Source: Escherichia coli (GTDB lineage Bacteria; Pseudomonadota; Gammaproteobacteria; Enterobacterales; Enterobacteriaceae). Taken from it: a stretch of 64,000 nt of DNA. The notes beneath the pieces are model-generated. The model saw only the letters and a list, made by a program, of their open reading frames with translations, was not told the origin of the DNA and ran no database searches. Position numbers and translations under genes: made by a program. Numbering within the stretch: position 1 is the stretch's first letter; the number at the start of each line of letters is the position of its first letter. The stretch is from NCBI RefSeq assembly GCF_044647545.1, contig NZ_CP172818.1; one strand, 5' to 3'. Shown here piece by piece: positions 13,123-19,589 of the stretch.

Positions 13123-14211
13123 TCAGGCTTTAAACGATTCCACTTTTTCGAACGCTGCACGCAACGTATCCGGTGTCAGCGTGACCGGCAGGTAATGAAT
13201 GGATTCCACCGGACGTAAGGTGTGGGCAATCACTTTGTCGATCTCCGCCTGATTATTGATATCCACTTCCAGCTCCGCCAGCGTAGTCGGCAGATGAAAA
13301 CGCTGATACGCTCCAGTTAATTGCGCCAGCACATCATCCTGACCCAGCAAGGCGCTTTGCACCAGAATTCCGTAGGCGACTTTGGTGCCGTGGAGAAACT
13401 TCTCGGTTTGCGGCAGCACGGTCAGACCGTTATGCACGGCATGAGCTGCCGCCACACGCGTAAAACGATCGCCCAGACCACCAACCATCCCACCACCAGC
13501 AATAATGGCATCCACCACATCGCAAAATGATTGCGTTAACTGGTGATTTTGCTGATCGCTCAGCGCCTGTTCGCTACTGTTTAACAAGACGTCGCGAATG
13601 GCCTGCGCATTATTGATCCCCAGTCGCACGGTTAGCGGCAACGTTTCTGGTTGCGGGGCCAGCACCACCGCTTCATACCATTTCGCCAGCGTGTCACCGA
13701 TCCCCGCCAGCAGATATTGTTGCGGCGCGTTGAGGATAATCTCCGGTTCCACCAGCACCATAAAATTGGCGTCGTCGAAAATCTCATAATGCAGCGCCTG
13801 TCCGGCATCGTTATACCAGACAGAGAGCGGTGTCCAGGCGGCGCAGGTAGCGGCGATCGTCGGAACGGCAACAAATGGCAGACCGAGACGGCGGGCGAGG
13901 GCTTTCGCGGTGTCGAGCAGTGCGCCGCCGCCGACGCCAATCACCACGTTGCGATCGTCAGCGGATTCAGCCGCCAGTTGCTGTACATCGCTTTCGCTGC
14001 AATGACCACGAAACAAAATATGCTTTGCCCCTGGCAGTTCAAACGCTGGCGGCAGTTTGGTTTGCGCCGCAGCAATGGCGCGTTCGCCGTAGATCCACAC
14101 CGCGCGAGAAAGCTGTTCATCAGTGAAAAAATCGTGCAGGTGATTGAAACTTCCTGGATGTGAAAAGTAGTTAGCCGGGCCGACGACCACGCGGATAGGA
14201 TTGTGAGGCAT
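13123..14211 (-). CDS. ybdH: Iron-containing alcohol/glycerol dehydrogenase family oxidoreductase
   Basis: 362 aa; dinucleotide-binding motif GVGGGALLDTAKA. Confidence 0.9.
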   Translation of the reverse strand: MPHNPIRVVVGPANYFSHPGSFNHLHDFFTDEQLSRAVWIYGERAIAAAQTKLPPAFELPGAKHILFRGHCSESDVQQLAAESADDRNVVIGVGGGALLDTAKALARRLGLPFVAVPTIAATCAAWTPLSVWYNDAGQALHYEIFDDANFMVLVEPEIILNAPQQYLLAGIGDTLAKWYEAVVLAPQPETLPLTVRLGINNAQAIRDVLLNSSEQALSDQQNHQLTQSFCDVVDAIIAGGGMVGGLGDRFTRVAAAHAVHNGLTVLPQTEKFLHGTKVAYGILVQSALLGQDDVLAQLTGAYQRFHLPTTLAELEVDINNQAEIDKVIAHTLRPVESIHYLPVTLTPDTLRAAFEKVESFKA

Positions 14212-14319
14212 GTTGTGTTGTCCTTATTGTTTTATTTAGACATCTAAACGTCTTGATTGCCAAATACTAGCATCGTGTTATAGTGCCTTCAACACGCAAC
14301 TTCATCAGGCACAATAAAA

Positions 14320-15480
14320 ATGACAAATAACCCTCTGATTCCACAAAGCAAACTTCCACAACTTGGCACCACTATTTTCACCCAGATGAGTGCACTGGCG
14401 CAGCAACACCAGGCGATTAACCTGTCGCAAGGCTTTCCTGATTTTGATGGTCCGCGCTATTTGCAGGAACGGCTGGCGTACCACGTTGCCCAGGGGGCAA
14501 ACCAATACGCACCCATGACCGGCGTGCAAGCATTACGCGAGGCGATTGCTCAGAAAACGGAACGGCTGTATGGCTATCAACCAGATGCCGACAGCGATAT
14601 CACCGTAACAGCAGGGGCGACGGAAGCGCTATACGCAGCGATTACTGCATTGGTTCGCAATGGCGATGAAGTGATTTGCTTTGATCCCAGCTATGACAGT
14701 TACGCGCCCGCCATCGCGCTTTCTGGGGGAATAGTGAAGCGTATGGCACTGCAACCACCGCATTTTCGCGTGGACTGGCAGGAATTTGCCGCATTGTTAA
14801 GCGAGCGCACCCGACTGGTGATCCTCAACACCCCGCATAACCCCAGTGCAACTGTCTGGCAGCAGACTGATTTCGCCGCTCTGTGGCAGGCGATTGCCGG
14901 GCACGAGATTTTTGTCATTAGCGATGAAGTTTACGAGCACATCAACTTTTCACAACAGGGCCATGCCAGCGTACTGGCGCATCCGCAGCTGCGTGAGCGG
15001 GCGGTGGCGGTGTCATCGTTTGGCAAGACCTATCATATGACCGGCTGGAAAGTGGGTTATTGCGTTGCGCCAGCGCCCATCAGTGCCGAAATTCGCAAGG
15101 TACACCAGTATCTGACCTTTTCGGTGAATACCCCGGCACAGCTGGCACTTGCGGATATGCTACGTGCAGAACCTGAGCATTATCTTGCGTTACCGGACTT
15201 TTATCGCCAGAAGCGCGATATTCTGGTGAATGCCTTAAATGAAAGTCGGCTGGAGATTTTACCGTGCGAAGGTACATACTTTTTGATGGTGGATTACAGC
15301 GCCGTATCTACGCTGGATGATGTTGAGTTTTGCCAGTGGCTGACGCGGGAGCACGGCGTAGCGGCGATTCCGCTGTCGGTGTTTTGCGCCGATCCCTTCC
15401 CACATAAACTGATTCGTCTCTGTTTTGCCAAGAAGGAATCGACGTTGCTGGCAGCAGCAGAACGCCTGCGCCAGCTTTAG
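14320..15480 (+). CDS. ybdL: PLP-dependent aminotransferase (class I; methionine aminotransferase)
   Basis: 386 aa; PLP-lysine motif SSFGKTY. Confidence 0.92.
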   Translation: MTNNPLIPQSKLPQLGTTIFTQMSALAQQHQAINLSQGFPDFDGPRYLQERLAYHVAQGANQYAPMTGVQALREAIAQKTERLYGYQPDADSDITVTAGATEALYAAITALVRNGDEVICFDPSYDSYAPAIALSGGIVKRMALQPPHFRVDWQEFAALLSERTRLVILNTPHNPSATVWQQTDFAALWQAIAGHEIFVISDEVYEHINFSQQGHASVLAHPQLRERAVAVSSFGKTYHMTGWKVGYCVAPAPISAEIRKVHQYLTFSVNTPAQLALADMLRAEPEHYLALPDFYRQKRDILVNALNESRLEILPCEGTYFLMVDYSAVSTLDDVEFCQWLTREHGVAAIPLSVFCADPFPHKLIRLCFAKKESTLLAAAERLRQL

Positions 15481-16110
15481 TTATTTAACCGTCCAGGCGC
15501 GGGAAAATTGACGGTCGGCAAACAACTCTTGCAGGCCGTTAATTTGCTTCAGGCGCAACACTTCGTCGCTGTCCATTCCCAGCTCTTTGCCAATTTTATT
15601 ATCGTCCCATCCCAACTGGCTGAGTTCTCGGACGATTTCTGACATGGCAGTGATTTGGTGACGTCCACGAGCGCGATTATGACGAATAGTTGCGGCGATG
15701 CGTTGATTACGCGTACCTTCCAGACAGGTCACCGGCAAATAACCTTTTAAGCGTAATTTTAACGATGATGAGCCTTTACCAATTTCATGGCGGTGAAAAC
15801 CATCCACGATTTCCAGGGCATTTTTATCCGTATGCGTGACCACAATGGGTTGGGTAAAACCATCTATTTCAATGGATTTTTTCAGCAGTTTTTTTTCGGG
15901 TGGTGCCACGTTGTTTGGGTTGTAATCATTAGGCATAAGTTGGCTGTTTTTAACCCACAGAACGCAATCCACTGGCTCTTCACGAAAGGGGCTAACCTGA
16001 TGGATCGCCATGCGGATTTCATTAATCGCTTTGATGCGATCATCTTCCGGCAAGCTGGCGAGAAATTGGGTTAAATCCTGCGTTAATCGTTGTTGCATAG
16101 TATCCCCCAT
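15481..16110 (-). CDS. ybdM: ParB/sulfiredoxin-like domain protein
   Basis: 209 aa; ParB/Srx signature IVDGFHRHE; 28-bp overlap with upstream ybdN; stop abuts ybdL stop. Confidence 0.88.
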   Translation of the reverse strand: MGDTMQQRLTQDLTQFLASLPEDDRIKAINEIRMAIHQVSPFREEPVDCVLWVKNSQLMPNDYNPNNVAPPEKKLLKKSIEIDGFTQPIVVTHTDKNALEIVDGFHRHEIGKGSSSLKLRLKGYLPVTCLEGTRNQRIAATIRHNRARGRHQITAMSEIVRELSQLGWDDNKIGKELGMDSDEVLRLKQINGLQELFADRQFSRAWTVK

Positions 16111-17303
16111 TCCTGACGTTTTCCTTTTATCCGTTCGTTATAACGCTGATAGTTCTTCGCTTTCGTAGGACTAAATGATAATGCCCGGCACCAGTAATCG
16201 TTATTGAGTAAAACTTTGCATATTCGCCGCCAGGAGGGGATATCTTTCGCGCCAATGTCCCCTTGCTGGGTTTGTGGAACTTCGATGCCTTTTTTCTGAT
16301 ACCAGTGCAAATAAATGGCGATTTTATTGCGGTAATGCTCAGCTGTTTTTTCCGGCATGCTATTGAGCAGCAATAATGCATATTCTTGCCAGTCTAAATG
16401 TTCTGGCTTGAGGATTTTCCGATGACCATAAAAATGATTATCATGTCCGGCGTAAATGCCGCCACTTTTTACCCCGCTGACTCGTGCGCACATAGCAGCC
16501 CAGCGATCCGGTTCGATAACGTGATAGAGCCATAATCCTTGCCGTTGCTCCGGGCCAAAAGGTTCGCAAATTCGCATATGACGCAGAGGAACGCCTGCCT
16601 GATACATTATATTATACAGTGGGTTACAGAGCTGTTGATGGTTAGCATACCAGGTCCAGATATCAGCCACTTTCCAGTCGTAGATGGGGTAAATGTACCA
16701 ACTATGACCGCCTGGTGCGGCGGTGGTCCAGGGCTTATCATCGGCAAAACGTTGTTTATTTAAACTGGCGATGGCGACAAAACGGTTGTAGGACTCATCT
16801 GCACGGATGCCGATCATCATCGCCGCCGGACGTTTTTGTGAAAACCATTCAGCAAACTCACGCACAAATTGTTCGAAGGTCATGCCAGGCTGGTAAAAGG
16901 AGAAAAAGTCAGGATCGGTTATCGCATCTTGCGGGGGCTGACGCACCCATTCGACATCAGGTTCCCAGCACTGCCATTCGGGTTGGTATTGAGAAAGGGA
17001 ATTTTGCGTCGTAAGCGGGAGCGCAACCCAGTAAAACTCTTCGATGACATCGGCGTAAAACTCACGTAATGACTGAACATAGTTAATAGTGCATGAGAAC
17101 TGCGCTTCCCAGTCGATAAACAAAACGCAGATTTTTTTGCCCATTTGTCGGGCAATTTCGGCGGTCAGATGCAGCATTAATCCGGAATCTTTACCACCCG
17201 AAAAAGAAACGCAGACACGGGGTAGGGTATTAAGTGTCCAGGTAATACGTTCTTTTGCAGCTTCCAGAATATTCAGTGGAAGCGGGATTTTATAAATAGA
17301 CAT
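16083..17303 (-). CDS. ybdN: PAPS-reductase-like PP-loop ATP pyrophosphatase family protein
   Basis: 406 aa; PP-loop motif SFSGGKDS near N-terminus. Confidence 0.88.
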   Translation of the reverse strand: MSIYKIPLPLNILEAAKERITWTLNTLPRVCVSFSGGKDSGLMLHLTAEIARQMGKKICVLFIDWEAQFSCTINYVQSLREFYADVIEEFYWVALPLTTQNSLSQYQPEWQCWEPDVEWVRQPPQDAITDPDFFSFYQPGMTFEQFVREFAEWFSQKRPAAMMIGIRADESYNRFVAIASLNKQRFADDKPWTTAAPGGHSWYIYPIYDWKVADIWTWYANHQQLCNPLYNIMYQAGVPLRHMRICEPFGPEQRQGLWLYHVIEPDRWAAMCARVSGVKSGGIYAGHDNHFYGHRKILKPEHLDWQEYALLLLNSMPEKTAEHYRNKIAIYLHWYQKKGIEVPQTQQGDIGAKDIPSWRRICKVLLNNDYWCRALSFSPTKAKNYQRYNERIKGKRQEWGILCNND

Positions 17304-17449
17304 CTAAAAACGCTCTCTGAACGTTACGGGGTGACTCGTGAGATGAATCCGCTAATTATAGGATAAACGAAGCAAGATAGAGCACATTATTTTATATTCA
17401 CATAATGAATTAATTGATGCGTAATATATTATTTGCCAGTGGTAATGAA

Positions 17450-18352
17450 TCAGAAGCTATCATTTAAACGATCTATGAATCGGGAGAAGACAAGGTTGTT
17501 CAACGAAGCCTTGTTATAGGAAATATAAAGTTTAACCGCAGGAAGAGGTTGTTCCAGTTTTATTTCTTTTAACTTCAAAAAGTCACGATGTAAATTGTAC
17601 AGTTCGGTGGGCACAATGCCTAATAAGTCAGTAACAGAAATACTATTAATTATAGTCATCAAAGAAGAACTGCGAAATGAAACTTTACGGTTCATAAAAC
17701 GTTCATCTATGTCCATTTGAATTTCGTCAATCCCTGCTGATTTAGATATCAACAGGGTGAATTCTTCGGCGATAATTTGTTCATAGTTACTGGTATCGGT
17801 AATACGAGGATGTTTGTTGCTACATATAAGAGAATTGCGAATAGTATGTAACGGCATGCAGATGACAGAGCGGCTAATTACTGGTTGTAGTGTAATTGCC
17901 AGGTCAGTTTTGCGTTGAACCAACAGTTCTTCGGCATTTTCAGCTGAAAGCAGTATGTCATGGCATTCTATATCGATTGAAGTATCTTGTCTAAGACAGC
18001 GGATTAGCATGTTGTTATTAGTACAAGAAATAAGCTGAGGACCGTAGATAATAAAATTTTTCTTTAGCTCAGACTTATTAACAATATTGATCGTTTGTTC
18101 AATGCCTCTGAGATTTTTCTCAAGATGATGATGCAGATTTAACCCTGTCGTAGTCGGCGCGATACCTTTCCCTGAACGAATGAATAACGGGTCATTAAAT
18201 TGCGCACGTAAACGTTGTAACGACTGACTAACAGCAGAGGGCGTTATATATAATGATTCTGCCGCTTTACTAATGCTGAGATGTTGATAAATACATTCAA
18301 ATATGACCAGTAAATTGAGGTCAAATTTTTTTAGATCATAAAGATTCGCCAT
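17450..18352 (-). CDS. ybdO: LysR-family transcriptional regulator
   Basis: 300 aa from ATG at 18352 (alternative upstream ATG at 18388); N-terminal HTH; markedly AT-rich coding sequence. Confidence 0.85.
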   Translation of the reverse strand: MANLYDLKKFDLNLLVIFECIYQHLSISKAAESLYITPSAVSQSLQRLRAQFNDPLFIRSGKGIAPTTTGLNLHHHLEKNLRGIEQTINIVNKSELKKNFIIYGPQLISCTNNNMLIRCLRQDTSIDIECHDILLSAENAEELLVQRKTDLAITLQPVISRSVICMPLHTIRNSLICSNKHPRITDTSNYEQIIAEEFTLLISKSAGIDEIQMDIDERFMNRKVSFRSSSLMTIINSISVTDLLGIVPTELYNLHRDFLKLKEIKLEQPLPAVKLYISYNKASLNNLVFSRFIDRLNDSF

Positions 18353-18556
18353 AACATACTCCGTTGTATTGTCTCTTCCATAAATCATTCACTTGATCAA
18401 TATTGTTGTTGTATTTATATGTGTTATGTTTTTCTGCTTAACTTTGGATTAAGATTTTCTAAAATAGCATAGCTGTCAGGTGGGTTACGAGCAATTCATG
18501 CTTTTTTAGGATGGTTGAAAAGCAGGAATATATTTCAACCATCCATAAATTATCTT

Positions 18557-19303
18557 TTATTTATTCCCCATAATGATATTAAGCGTTTTCTGATCGGGCA
18601 ACCCCACGGCCTGTTGCAGTGTATTTTCCTTACTCATGTAATAGATAGCTGGCGTGACATTTGCCCCCAGATCGTCCATCAGTTTCTCGTTATCGCTTAA
18701 CACTTTCATTTGCTCTGTACTTACGTTTGCAGGCACGTTTAGTTTAAGCTTGCCACCAGAGGCTTCATATTCTTGCCAGGTTTTTGCGGGATCTTTGGAG
18801 GCAAGAATTGCCGCTGCTGTCGCCGGGCTTTCTGGCTTGATAACGCCAACCAACAATGTTCTTAATTGCACTTTGCCAGAATCTACCCACGGGCGAGCCT
18901 GCTGCCAGAACTGTTTACAATATGGGCAGAACGGATCGGCGAAGACGTAGACAATGACCGGCGCGTCTTTTTTACCGTCGAGGAGCCAGTGGGATTGTTC
19001 CATCCGTTGCCACATTTCGCGTCCGGCGGGTGCGTAAATTTCTTTTTCGATAAGTGTGTTACTCAGGTTTTCACCTTTCTCGTTGTACATGTAACCGGAG
19101 ATAGCGTGCTTACCATCTGGAGTCAGGTAGATGGTGACGCCCATATCCTGATACTTGCCGAGATAACCTTTCATTCCTCCGGGAGCATCGAACGTTTTGA
19201 TGATTGTAATGCCCTGTTTTTCAATCGCTTTTACTGGGGCAGGAAGTTCCTCTGCGAAGGCGATTGCAGGAAGCAGAGCCAGTAAAAGTATCTTTTTTAA
19301 CAT
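18557..19303 (-). CDS. dsbG: Periplasmic thiol:disulfide interchange protein
   Basis: 248 aa from ATG at 19303; signal peptide [17 protein letters not shown]; thioredoxin CPYC motif. Confidence 0.92.
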
Positions 19304-19589
19304 TAATTTGTCCTTTTCAGTCAGTGCAAAAGTCGAGTAAAAGGCATAACCTATCACTGTCATAGGTAAGAGCTTAGATCAGGTGATTGCCCTTTGTTTA
19401 TGAGGGTGTTGTAATCCATGTCGTTGTTGCATTTGTAAGGGCAACACCTCAGCCTGCAGGCAGGCGCTGAAGATACCAAAGGGTAGTTCAGATTACACGG
19501 TCACCTGGAAAGGGGGCCATTTTACTTTTTATCGCCGCTGGCGGTGCAAAGTTCACAAAGTTGTCTTACGAAGGTTGTAAGGTAAAACT

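Follow-up and report, generated by a model that had tools for sequence, protein, structure and literature searches.

The ybdNM pair

What two overlapping Escherichia coli genes, ybdN and ybdM, accomplish together is the question raised by a locus in a 64,000-nucleotide stretch of contig NZ_CP172818.1 (NCBI RefSeq assembly GCF_044647545.1), which is referred to below as the window and whose numbering is used throughout. Both genes lie on the minus strand, with ybdN at 16083..17303 encoding a protein of 406 amino acids and ybdM at 15481..16110 encoding one of 209 by its longest open reading frame (ORF). RefSeq calls the former a 'phosphoadenosine phosphosulfate reductase' and the latter an 'IbrB-like domain-containing protein'. 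An earlier reading, made from the sequence alone, whose checkable points were all confirmed, had seen in them a candidate nucleic-acid-directed module and had regarded the activity of the K-12 pair as undefined. This still holds: literature searches on DUF3440, on phosphoadenosine phosphosulfate (PAPS) reductase with ParB and on the PP-loop with ParB returned no functional study, and the papers found continue to describe the activity as unknown. The analysis places ybdNM as the maintained core E. coli copy, normally silenced, of a module, IbrA/IbrB, that phages, islands and plasmids carry, and this module most likely couples an ATP-using enzyme with a DNA-binding partner.

The genes themselves, their overlap, the homology to IbrAB and the regulator were already public. 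What is added here is the obligate linkage of the two families in both directions and across phyla, the absence of a conserved cysteine, the recurrence of helicase, GNAT (GCN5-related N-acetyltransferase), second-ParB and methyltransferase partners, and the split between a core YbdNM and a mobile IbrAB lineage.

YbdN, a PP-loop enzyme without conserved cysteines

YbdN, the IbrA-family member of the pair, is formed of a PAPS-reductase-fold PP-loop domain followed by DUF3440. The first of these, an adenine nucleotide alpha-hydrolase domain detected with the Pfam model PAPS_reduct at 6e-14, spans residues 30-234 (16602..17216; this and all other features of the two genes are on the minus strand) and houses the ATP pyrophosphate-binding loop SFSGGKDS (residues 33-40; 17184..17207), a motif read from the sequence and conserved in homologues. 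The second (Pfam, 5e-23) is an all-helical C-terminal domain without an assigned fold match, which covers residues 237-383 (16155..16595). The same composition runs through the IbrA family, in which DUF3440 was detected in 45 out of 45 members and PAPS_reduct in 44 of them (Pfam, E≤1e-3), and YbdN has a full-length match to phrog_2302 in PHROGs (1.5e-76). An AlphaFold2 model built on 45 diverse homologues, with a mean predicted local distance difference test score of 91.5, displays the PAPS-reductase alpha/beta fold by structure match, and the solved structures that come closest to it are CysD and FAD synthase, at 18–21% identity over about 165 residues. CysD is also the best PDB profile match (8e-10). 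Both CysD and FAD synthase move AMP from ATP onto an oxyanion. YbdN differs from CysD and from the eukaryotic FAD synthase (FMN adenylyltransferase) by a tryptophan-rich insert (W110, W113, W119), by DUF3440 and by its obligate ParB partner.

The conservation pattern was taken from an alignment (A1) of 45 homologues with 28–50% identity to YbdN. Invariant positions in it are G37, K38 and S40 of the PP-loop, D64, E66, W113, W119, S171 within a GIRxDES motif, D214 and Y230, with D39 conserved in at least 90% of the sequences; G37, K38, D39, S40, D64, E66, S171 and D214 are each found in 65 of 65 non-enterobacterial loci. No cysteine is invariant or at least 90% conserved among the 45 IbrA homologues, and none is conserved in the IbrB family either. 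The best-conserved cysteine column of the IbrA family (39/45; motif YWxCLP; column 126 of A1) maps, by reading of the alignment, to Ala94 of YbdN (approximately 17022-17024), and the IbrA of the E. coli phage PhiR5_2 reads WVALP where most IbrA homologues have cysteine; if the mapping to Ala94 holds, the cysteine found most often in the family would be one that the enterobacterial clade can do without. At the column of C246, cysteine occurs in just 23 of the 45 sequences.

To our knowledge, every known sulfur-handling enzyme of the PP-loop or PAPS fold (CysH, DndC, MnmA, ThiI, TtcA/TtuA, LarE) requires conserved cysteines. Because the YbdN family has none, and because the cut-offs of the curated families are all missed widely, YbdN is an enzyme of the PAPS-reductase fold whose ATP-type PP-loop is intact, and it is neither a PAPS reductase nor a Dnd-type sulfurtransferase. 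The sequence-only reading had recognised the PP-loop, with which the Pfam, family and structure matches agree. Its analogies with CysH, tRNA thiolation and DndC are disfavoured, since neither family has a conserved cysteine.

One database protein of 493 amino acids (P0235) has a C-terminal fragment of UvrA joined to an IbrA body; it is probably a chimera of assembly or gene calling and not a true fusion.

YbdM, a minimal ParB-like protein

YbdM belongs to the IbrB family, members of which are 34–58% identical across phyla and more conserved than those of the IbrA family. Its ParB N-terminal (ParB/Srx) domain (residues 54-109; 15784..15951; Pfam ParB_N, 2.8e-4) contains an NDYNPN box and the motif DGFHR, the latter read from the sequence at residues 103-107 (15790..15804). 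A third box of the putative nucleotide pocket, RHNRARGRH (residues 143-151; 15658..15684), is recognised by its invariant residues in 41 IbrB homologues and is followed by a helix-turn-helix region at approximately residues 168-189 (15544..15609; IGKELGMDSDEVLRLKQ), which is supported by conserved residues, by structural alignments and by helices that occur at this position in a fused YbdN-YbdM model. The protein stops after the helix-turn-helix and has no ParB dimerisation domain.

The ParB assignment is carried by several searches. ParB_N is found at E≤1e-3 in 24 of 41 IbrB-family members, with a best value of 1.3e-10 (Pfam), and YbdM itself matches phrog_2159 in PHROGs at 1.1e-68. Against the PDB, the IbrB-family profile retrieves Noc (1.8e-6) and ParB (2.6e-6), with Noc, ParB and Spo0J in a range of 2e-6 to 7e-5, and a Foldseek search with the YbdM part of the fused model returns Noc, KorB and ParB with CDP or CTPgammaS at a probability of 1.0 and E values of approximately 4e-6 to 2e-5. 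These Foldseek alignments are taken to cover the N-domain together with the helix-turn-helix, because 138-157 columns are aligned as against a Pfam ParB_N match of about 56 residues. The DGFHR motif had also been picked out in the sequence-only reading, and neither it nor the SGGKDS match is spurious, as both hold up at the level of Pfam, PHROGs, family and structure. The profile of the IbrB family is matched by the ParB/Srx kinase SbnI as well (8.5e-4), and YbdM has weak matches to models of ParB-methyltransferases, in PHROGs and, at 6.5e-4, in PADLOC.

Within the 41 IbrB homologues N61, N64, P65, N66, D103, G104 and R107 are invariant, as are R143, N145, A147, G149 and H151 of the third box and G178 and E183 of the helix-turn-helix. 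Set against boxes I to III of ParB, the IbrB boxes read NDYNPN for NxxQPR, DGFHR for GERR, where the final arginine is kept but the catalytic glutamate is replaced by phenylalanine, and RHNRARGxH for ENxQR. Since the three boxes are invariant and yet altered relative to those of the CTPase ParBs, the putative nucleotide pocket of YbdM is strongly constrained but chemically unlike theirs. With the CTP switches Noc, KorB and VirB, YbdM shares the fold of the N-domain and helix-turn-helix; it differs from them in these NPN and DGFHR substitutions, in the missing C-terminal dimerisation domain and in having neither a ParA nor a parS-like palindrome. Noc, KorB and VirB show by precedent that a ParB-like protein can serve to control transcription or the state of DNA instead of partition.

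A partition ParB was considered for YbdM and rejected, with a score of 15.8 against 58.45 for TIGR00180, no adjacent ParA gene, no inverted repeat, no GERR glutamate and no dimerisation domain.

Obligate pairing of the two families

The pairing of IbrA with IbrB is obligate in both directions. From the IbrA/YbdN side, 91 loci were assembled, comprising 79 genome loci (one genome per species, from the closer homologue set A2) and 12 annotated phage loci, and in all 91 an ORF of the IbrB family lies on the same strand no more than 1.3 kb away, in most cases as the overlapping gene directly downstream. From the IbrB side, IbrA is found on the same strand in 79 of 80 IMG/VR viral loci, and the remaining locus ends at a contig edge. 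The order of ibrA and ibrB can invert, but the pair is never split in the loci examined; a routine separation of the two genes would have told against the sequence-only reading. Among sequenced phages, relatives of YbdN occur in 224 records and relatives of YbdM in 226, with a nearly equal host breakdown (Flavobacterium 90, Mycobacterium 60, Streptococcus 21, Arthrobacter 12, Bacillus 8).

YbdNM has the family characteristics of IbrA/IbrB throughout: PAPS_reduct with DUF3440 in one protein, a ParB N-domain and helix-turn-helix with NDYNPN, DGFHR and RHNRARGxH in the other, and genes that are adjacent, co-oriented and overlapping. It shares the two-domain architectures, gene order and overlap of IbrA/IbrB of strain ECOR-9, whose name stands for 'immunoglobulin-binding regulator', and the phage and island copies are 57% (IbrA) and 57–58% (IbrB) identical to YbdN and YbdM.

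Phage annotation routinely names IbrA a 'PAPS reductase' and counts it as an auxiliary gene of sulfur metabolism. Since conserved cysteines are missing and a ParB partner is obligate, this interpretation is almost certainly wrong.

Genomic contexts of the mobile relatives

The two-gene unit is widespread, being present in at least 594 viral contigs, 224 sequenced phages, 854 plasmid records and the islands of about one third of E. coli genomes, and the surroundings in which the mobile relatives occur are indicative of DNA. The pair carried by phages of Actinobacteria and Bacillus sits at the genome end ahead of the terminase, where a further ParB-like gene is also present and, in many cases, a methyltransferase. 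In Firmicutes phages its place is between the lysis module on one side and cro/early or lysogeny genes on the other, and a SNF2-type helicase of about 420 amino acids comes before it. Mycobacterium phage Gaia, a Microcystis phage, a Chlorobi phage and many IMG/VR contigs carry it amid genes for primase, RecT/YqaJ, RusA, exonuclease and replication initiators. When neighbours were clustered, 19 loci from genomes or phages had a SNF2/SF2 helicase, and among the viral loci a SNF2-like helicase occurred in 7 and an SF2 helicase in 5. A GNAT-like ORF of about 133 amino acids (for example L046 7297-7692 and L040 7206-7613) accompanies the pair in 28 of 64 non-enterobacterial loci and in several viral loci, and the 80 viral loci (L094-L173) contain 116 ParB-like ORFs. 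Phages that are reported to be lytic, or are classified as such, carry the pair too, among them Flavobacterium FCL-2-type phages and Streptococcus thermophilus Moineauvirus, so that the function of IbrAB is not confined to lysogenic conversion.

Several individual loci have features of their own. Many phage cassettes have, near IbrB, a second and more canonical (nuclease-type) ParB-like paralogue (L007 1-693; L008 226-1422 and 3284-3907; L012 3906-4992); E. coli ybdNM has one ParB-like gene only. In phage Gaia (L005 6290-7189) IbrB is fused to an ectoine-synthase-like cupin (2.6e-34). The ectoine enzyme EctC is a cupin and EctA is a GNAT. The Gaia fusion and the GNAT genes may hint at amine or acetyl chemistry, or may be a coincidence. 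The flanks of a Bacteroides locus (L086) are mostly without annotation, save for a DnaB-like helicase.

The enterobacterial copies, core and mobile

Of 5426 complete E. coli genomes, 5420 contain the 1.8-kb ybdNM segment, and in 5400 of them its coverage is at least 80%, which leaves 26 genomes without a place that covers this proportion. In E. coli EC488 (NZ_CP109874.1 3551891-3554489) an IS1 element is inserted in ybdN. The closest homologues of YbdN, at 65–98% identity, are of YbdN type and come from Escherichia, Citrobacter, Salmonella, Enterobacter, Klebsiella and related genera, with ybdO upstream in 14 loci of the YbdNM type and ybdL downstream in 18. YbdNM thereby differs from IbrA/IbrB as a separate, syntenic and vertically inherited enterobacterial lineage at ybdO-ybdL, whereas the IbrAB-type copies are accessory; Citrobacter werkmanii carries both a YbdNM-type and an IbrAB-type pair (L016, L033). 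Against a divergent Escherichia lineage, the ratio of nonsynonymous to synonymous substitution rates (dN/dS) is 0.044 for ybdN and 0.034 for ybdM. The pair was probably acquired long ago from a mobile element and has since been passed on vertically, with purifying selection acting on it. A contig labelled E. coli SCPM-O-B-8794 (L013 6001-7823) differs from the window by a dS of about 0.7 in both genes and probably represents a divergent Escherichia lineage, because this value lies far above what is usual within E. coli.

The core copy is controlled by its neighbour. The LysR-type gene ybdO, which encodes YbdO (CitR) and lies upstream of ybdN on the minus strand (17450..18388), is AT-rich, as had been noted from the sequence, with a GC content of 0.33–0.38 as compared with 0.44–0.49 for ybdNM and 0.53–0.60 for the flanks, and its product represses ybdNM. 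Immunoprecipitation of chromatin combined with exonuclease digestion (ChIP-exo) placed a YbdO peak upstream of ybdO-ybdNM, and deletion of ybdO raised ybdN by a log2 fold change of 5.5 and ybdM by 2.5 amongst a total of 86 shifted genes (PMC9068703). In the same mutant the whole Cys regulon (cysDNC, cysJI, cysAUW) rose by approximately log2 2–2.8 and flagellar genes rose more (PMC9068703, Table 1), and ybdO (citR) is described as H-NS-regulated (PMC9068703). The repression of ybdNM by YbdO is taken from the literature. Elsewhere, YbdM protein was found to be up 29-fold in the presence of plasmid pUUH239.2 with blaCTX-M-15, in a study that terms it 'completely uncharacterized' (PMC8764527), and the Keio ybdM knockout resists lacritin peptide (PMC12147183).

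IbrAB-type copies are present in 1930 of the 5426 E. coli genomes. Homology to IbrA/IbrB on prophages and islands, which the sequence-only reading had put forward, is borne out by the RefSeq name of ybdM and by phage PhiR5_2, whose IbrA is 56.6% identical to YbdN. Island copies include those on the tRNA-Phe island of CFT073 (L093 8968-11178) and the cah island of O157:H7 (L092 8978-11181), both with AAA-domain or ATP-dependent nuclease genes before the pair and a PerC-family regulator after it; ibrB is frameshifted in CFT073. On plasmids, the pair lies between fecIA and iroBCDN in the Klebsiella pneumoniae virulence plasmid pKP2185-vir (L175 8989-10850) and adjoins an autotransporter gene in an E. 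coli IncF plasmid (L174 8992-10841). In 2002 Sandt, Hopper and Hill reportedly found that ibrA and ibrB, on an island of ECOR-9, together activate prophage eib genes. The presence of ibrB is described as enhancing Eib expression (PMC7649339).

A proposed mode of action

The folds, the conservation of motifs, the obligate pairing and the genomic contexts are direct observations, and taken together with the intact catalytic and pocket motifs they argue for a unit that acts on DNA. The reading we lean towards, with a confidence somewhat short of even, is that ybdNM is a ParB-guided adenylating enzyme that acts on DNA and has effects on expression. YbdN and YbdM would form a complex and work as one unit, in which YbdM, as a minimal protein of the ParB/Noc/KorB type, would be the nucleotide-gated targeting subunit that binds DNA and recruits or gates YbdN. 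YbdN would be the catalytic subunit, a PP-loop ATP pyrophosphatase predicted to convert ATP into AMP and pyrophosphate and to place the adenylyl group on an oxygen of some substrate associated with DNA, in all likelihood the DNA itself, whereupon a group other than sulfur would replace or join that oxygen. The outcome would be a change in how foreign DNA is expressed or handled, the activation of the prophage eib genes by IbrAB being an example. The surroundings of the mobile pairs, with their SNF2/SF2 helicases, methyltransferases, terminase, primase, RecT, RusA, exonuclease and second ParB, are in keeping with a DNA substrate.

A bolder and somewhat more doubtful version extends the proposal to the whole of IbrA/IbrB, including YbdN/YbdM, as a widespread DNA-marking system that works without sulfur. 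Here a ParB-type loader would bring in a PP-loop enzyme that adenylates an oxygen of a base or the backbone and installs a non-sulfur group, possibly helped in larger cassettes by the GNAT or cupin and the SNF2/SF2 helicase; the mark would serve phage protection or gene control and would have been domesticated in Enterobacteriaceae under YbdO/H-NS.

There are parallels for such an arrangement. In DpdA-DpdB, a system of 7-deazaguanine DNA modification, and in the ParB-fused DNA methyltransferases of phages, a ParB-like NTPase or DNA-binding module assists an enzyme that modifies DNA bases (PMC12839542). The catalytic partner in YbdNM differs from theirs in being a PP-loop ATP pyrophosphatase and not a transglycosylase or methyltransferase. 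Relative to Dnd, Dpd, ParABS and CysH, the mechanisms of which are understood, YbdNM is a distinct variant of the theme in which a ParB-like partner is combined with a nucleic-acid enzyme. Should the pair mark DNA or activate silenced genes of foreign origin, it would represent a new enzyme-plus-ParB mechanism in phage-host biology, explain the long-standing effect of IbrAB on the eib genes and assign a function to two core y-genes of E. coli; if it marks DNA, this would amount to a new kind of DNA modification, used by phages and domesticated by Enterobacteriaceae.

A number of points weigh against a role in DNA modification. DNA modification, ATPase activity and a YbdN-YbdM complex are all still predictions, and we know of no unexplained modification in K-12 DNA. 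The helicase, GNAT and methyltransferase partners are absent from the E. coli copy, and the enterobacterial mobile copies adjoin PerC regulators, autotransporter genes and siderophore loci instead of genes of DNA metabolism, which fits a purely regulatory role equally well. No inverted repeat or parS-like palindrome that could act as a binding site near the operon was found within 15300-17650. The fused AlphaFold2 model, in which the two proteins were joined by a linker and supplied with a paired alignment, reached a predicted template modelling score (pTM) of only 0.52 and came without a predicted aligned error, contacts or a usable interface, so that it speaks neither for nor against a complex. 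In this same model YbdN residues 5-11 and the conserved C-terminus of YbdM both turn into strands, which is a hint.

Weighing the alternatives

The main rival to a ParB-guided adenylating enzyme leaves the DNA chemically unchanged. YbdM/IbrB would in this case be a VirB/KorB-like clamp on DNA, switched by NTP, and would open foreign promoters that are silenced (H-NS-bound), as a transcriptional co-activator or anti-silencer, with YbdN/IbrA making or removing its ligand or modifying the regulator. It accords with the sole reported phenotype, activation of the prophage eib genes (reportedly found by Sandt and colleagues in 2002, whose work PMC7649339 cites), with KorB and Noc being among the structural neighbours of YbdM, with the PerC-family regulators that follow the enterobacterial mobile copies in virulence islands and plasmids, and with an AT-rich operon under the H-NS-regulated ybdO, deletion of which derepresses ybdNM together with the wider shift in expression described above (PMC9068703). 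However, it leaves the enzyme without a role although its catalytic motifs do not vary from phylum to phylum, nor does it sit well with the occurrence of the pair in phages that are classified as lytic or reported to be so, and in replication or packaging modules with helicases and methyltransferases. Moreover, YbdM has phenylalanine for the catalytic glutamate of GERR and is without the C-terminal dimerisation domain of ParB that a closed clamp needs. We regard this explanation as rather unlikely, though the most credible of the competitors. It is unlikely in a stronger sense that the module performs nucleotide or protein chemistry in defence or anti-defence, whereby a small molecule or a protein terminus would be what the PP-loop enzyme adenylates or conjugates, in the manner of the QueC-like Cap9 of type IV CBASS (cyclic oligonucleotide-based antiphage signalling systems), or the ParB/Srx partner would hydrolyse or phosphorylate nucleotides. 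The SbnI match, the AAA-domain and ATP-dependent nuclease genes beside the island copies, and the small-molecule chemistry suggested by the GNATs and by the cupin-IbrB fusion of one phage lend themselves to it. Nevertheless, PADLOC-DB v2 gives YbdN only weak matches to DndC (1.9e-5) and BrxP (1.1e-4), the helix-turn-helix of YbdM is conserved family-wide, and the contexts with helicases, methyltransferases and terminase indicate DNA.

The remaining explanations draw on the known chemistry of the PP-loop and PAPS folds. Many characterised PP-loop enzymes of nucleic acids act on tRNA, and YbdN could be imagined to modify a tRNA base in the manner of TilS, TtcA or ThiI, with a ParB-like specificity factor; yet the TilS_N model scores 21.8 against a cut-off of 93.6, the thiolases need cysteine or Fe-S ligands of which none is conserved in the YbdN family, and both the DNA-type ParB/helix-turn-helix partner and the neighbouring DNA enzymes speak for another substrate, which makes a tRNA role quite improbable. 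DNA phosphorothioation of the Dnd/Ssp kind, with YbdN as DndC and YbdM as DndB, has the attraction that DndB-DndC likewise pairs a PAPS-reductase-fold PP-loop enzyme with a ParB/Srx protein bearing a DGxHR-type motif, and that Dnd acts on DNA. YbdN matches DndC weakly (7e-5 in NCBIfam, besides the PADLOC value above), and the Cys regulon is up in the ybdO deletion in which ybdN is derepressed (PMC9068703). The DndC model TIGR03183, however, scores 21.9 against a cut-off of 290.4, YbdM matches no DndB model in NCBIfam or PADLOC at E≤0.01, there is no invariant cysteine for an Fe-S cluster or persulfide, DUF3440 takes the place of the C-terminal domain of DndC, and DndA, DndD and DndE are absent from the conserved neighbour clusters of the loci examined, so that a Dnd-like activity is very improbable. 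Least plausible of all, and in our view scarcely credible, is a true PAPS or adenosine phosphosulfate reductase or an ATP sulfurylase of sulfur assimilation, as supposed in the auxiliary metabolic gene reading of phages. The database name, the PAPS_reduct match, the fold and the CysD profile match are what recommends it. Scores against the CysH models are 34.9 versus 254.2 (TIGR02057), 34.0 versus 154 (NF002537) and 24.2 versus 165.1 (TIGR00434), those against the CysD models are 18.6–24.7 versus cut-offs of 195–413, the catalytic C-terminal cysteine (ECGLH-type) is not conserved, and an obligate ParB partner and DUF3440 have no role in sulfate reduction. In addition, the canonical ATP-type SGGKDS loop, as in YbdN, differs from that of CysH, and E. 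coli already owns cysH and cysDN.

Reading frames and flanking sequence

The overlap between ybdN and ybdM (16083..16110) measures 28 nt by the longest ORF, as the sequence-only reading had stated, and 16 nt (16083-16098) if ybdM starts at an internal ATG, Met5 at 16098, to give a protein of 205 amino acids. This internal ATG has a GGGG(A/G) Shine-Dalgarno-like element in front of it and is kept in nearly all of 17 YbdNM-type enterobacterial loci in a junction alignment, with GTG in two, whilst the upstream ATG (-28) is imposed by Glu-Trp codons of YbdN. For these reasons the functional overlap may be 16 nt, as is common in IbrAB-type loci, instead of 28 nt. The -28 geometry is found in 17 of the YbdNM-type enterobacterial loci (L013-L031), and overlaps of 4 or 16 nt are common elsewhere.

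Over 15300-18800 the counts of predicted promoters and terminators equal the shuffled expectation, and the same scan gave no terminator between ybdM and ybdL. An Rfam scan of 14000-19500 had no match inside the operon; upstream of ahpC, at 19437-19500, it gave a weak match to the enterobacterial small RNA STnc70 (28.3 bits against a gathering score of 40, E 0.009), which is truncated by the edge of the searched stretch.

On its downstream side ybdM faces ybdL (14320..15480, plus strand), a convergent neighbour that belongs to the context and lies outside the module. The base-to-base junction described in the sequence-only reading is present, the two stop codons directly adjoining one another (15478-15483) with 0 bases between them, and a listing from E. 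coli RNA-seq data has ybdL-ybdM as a convergent excludon (PMC12288877).

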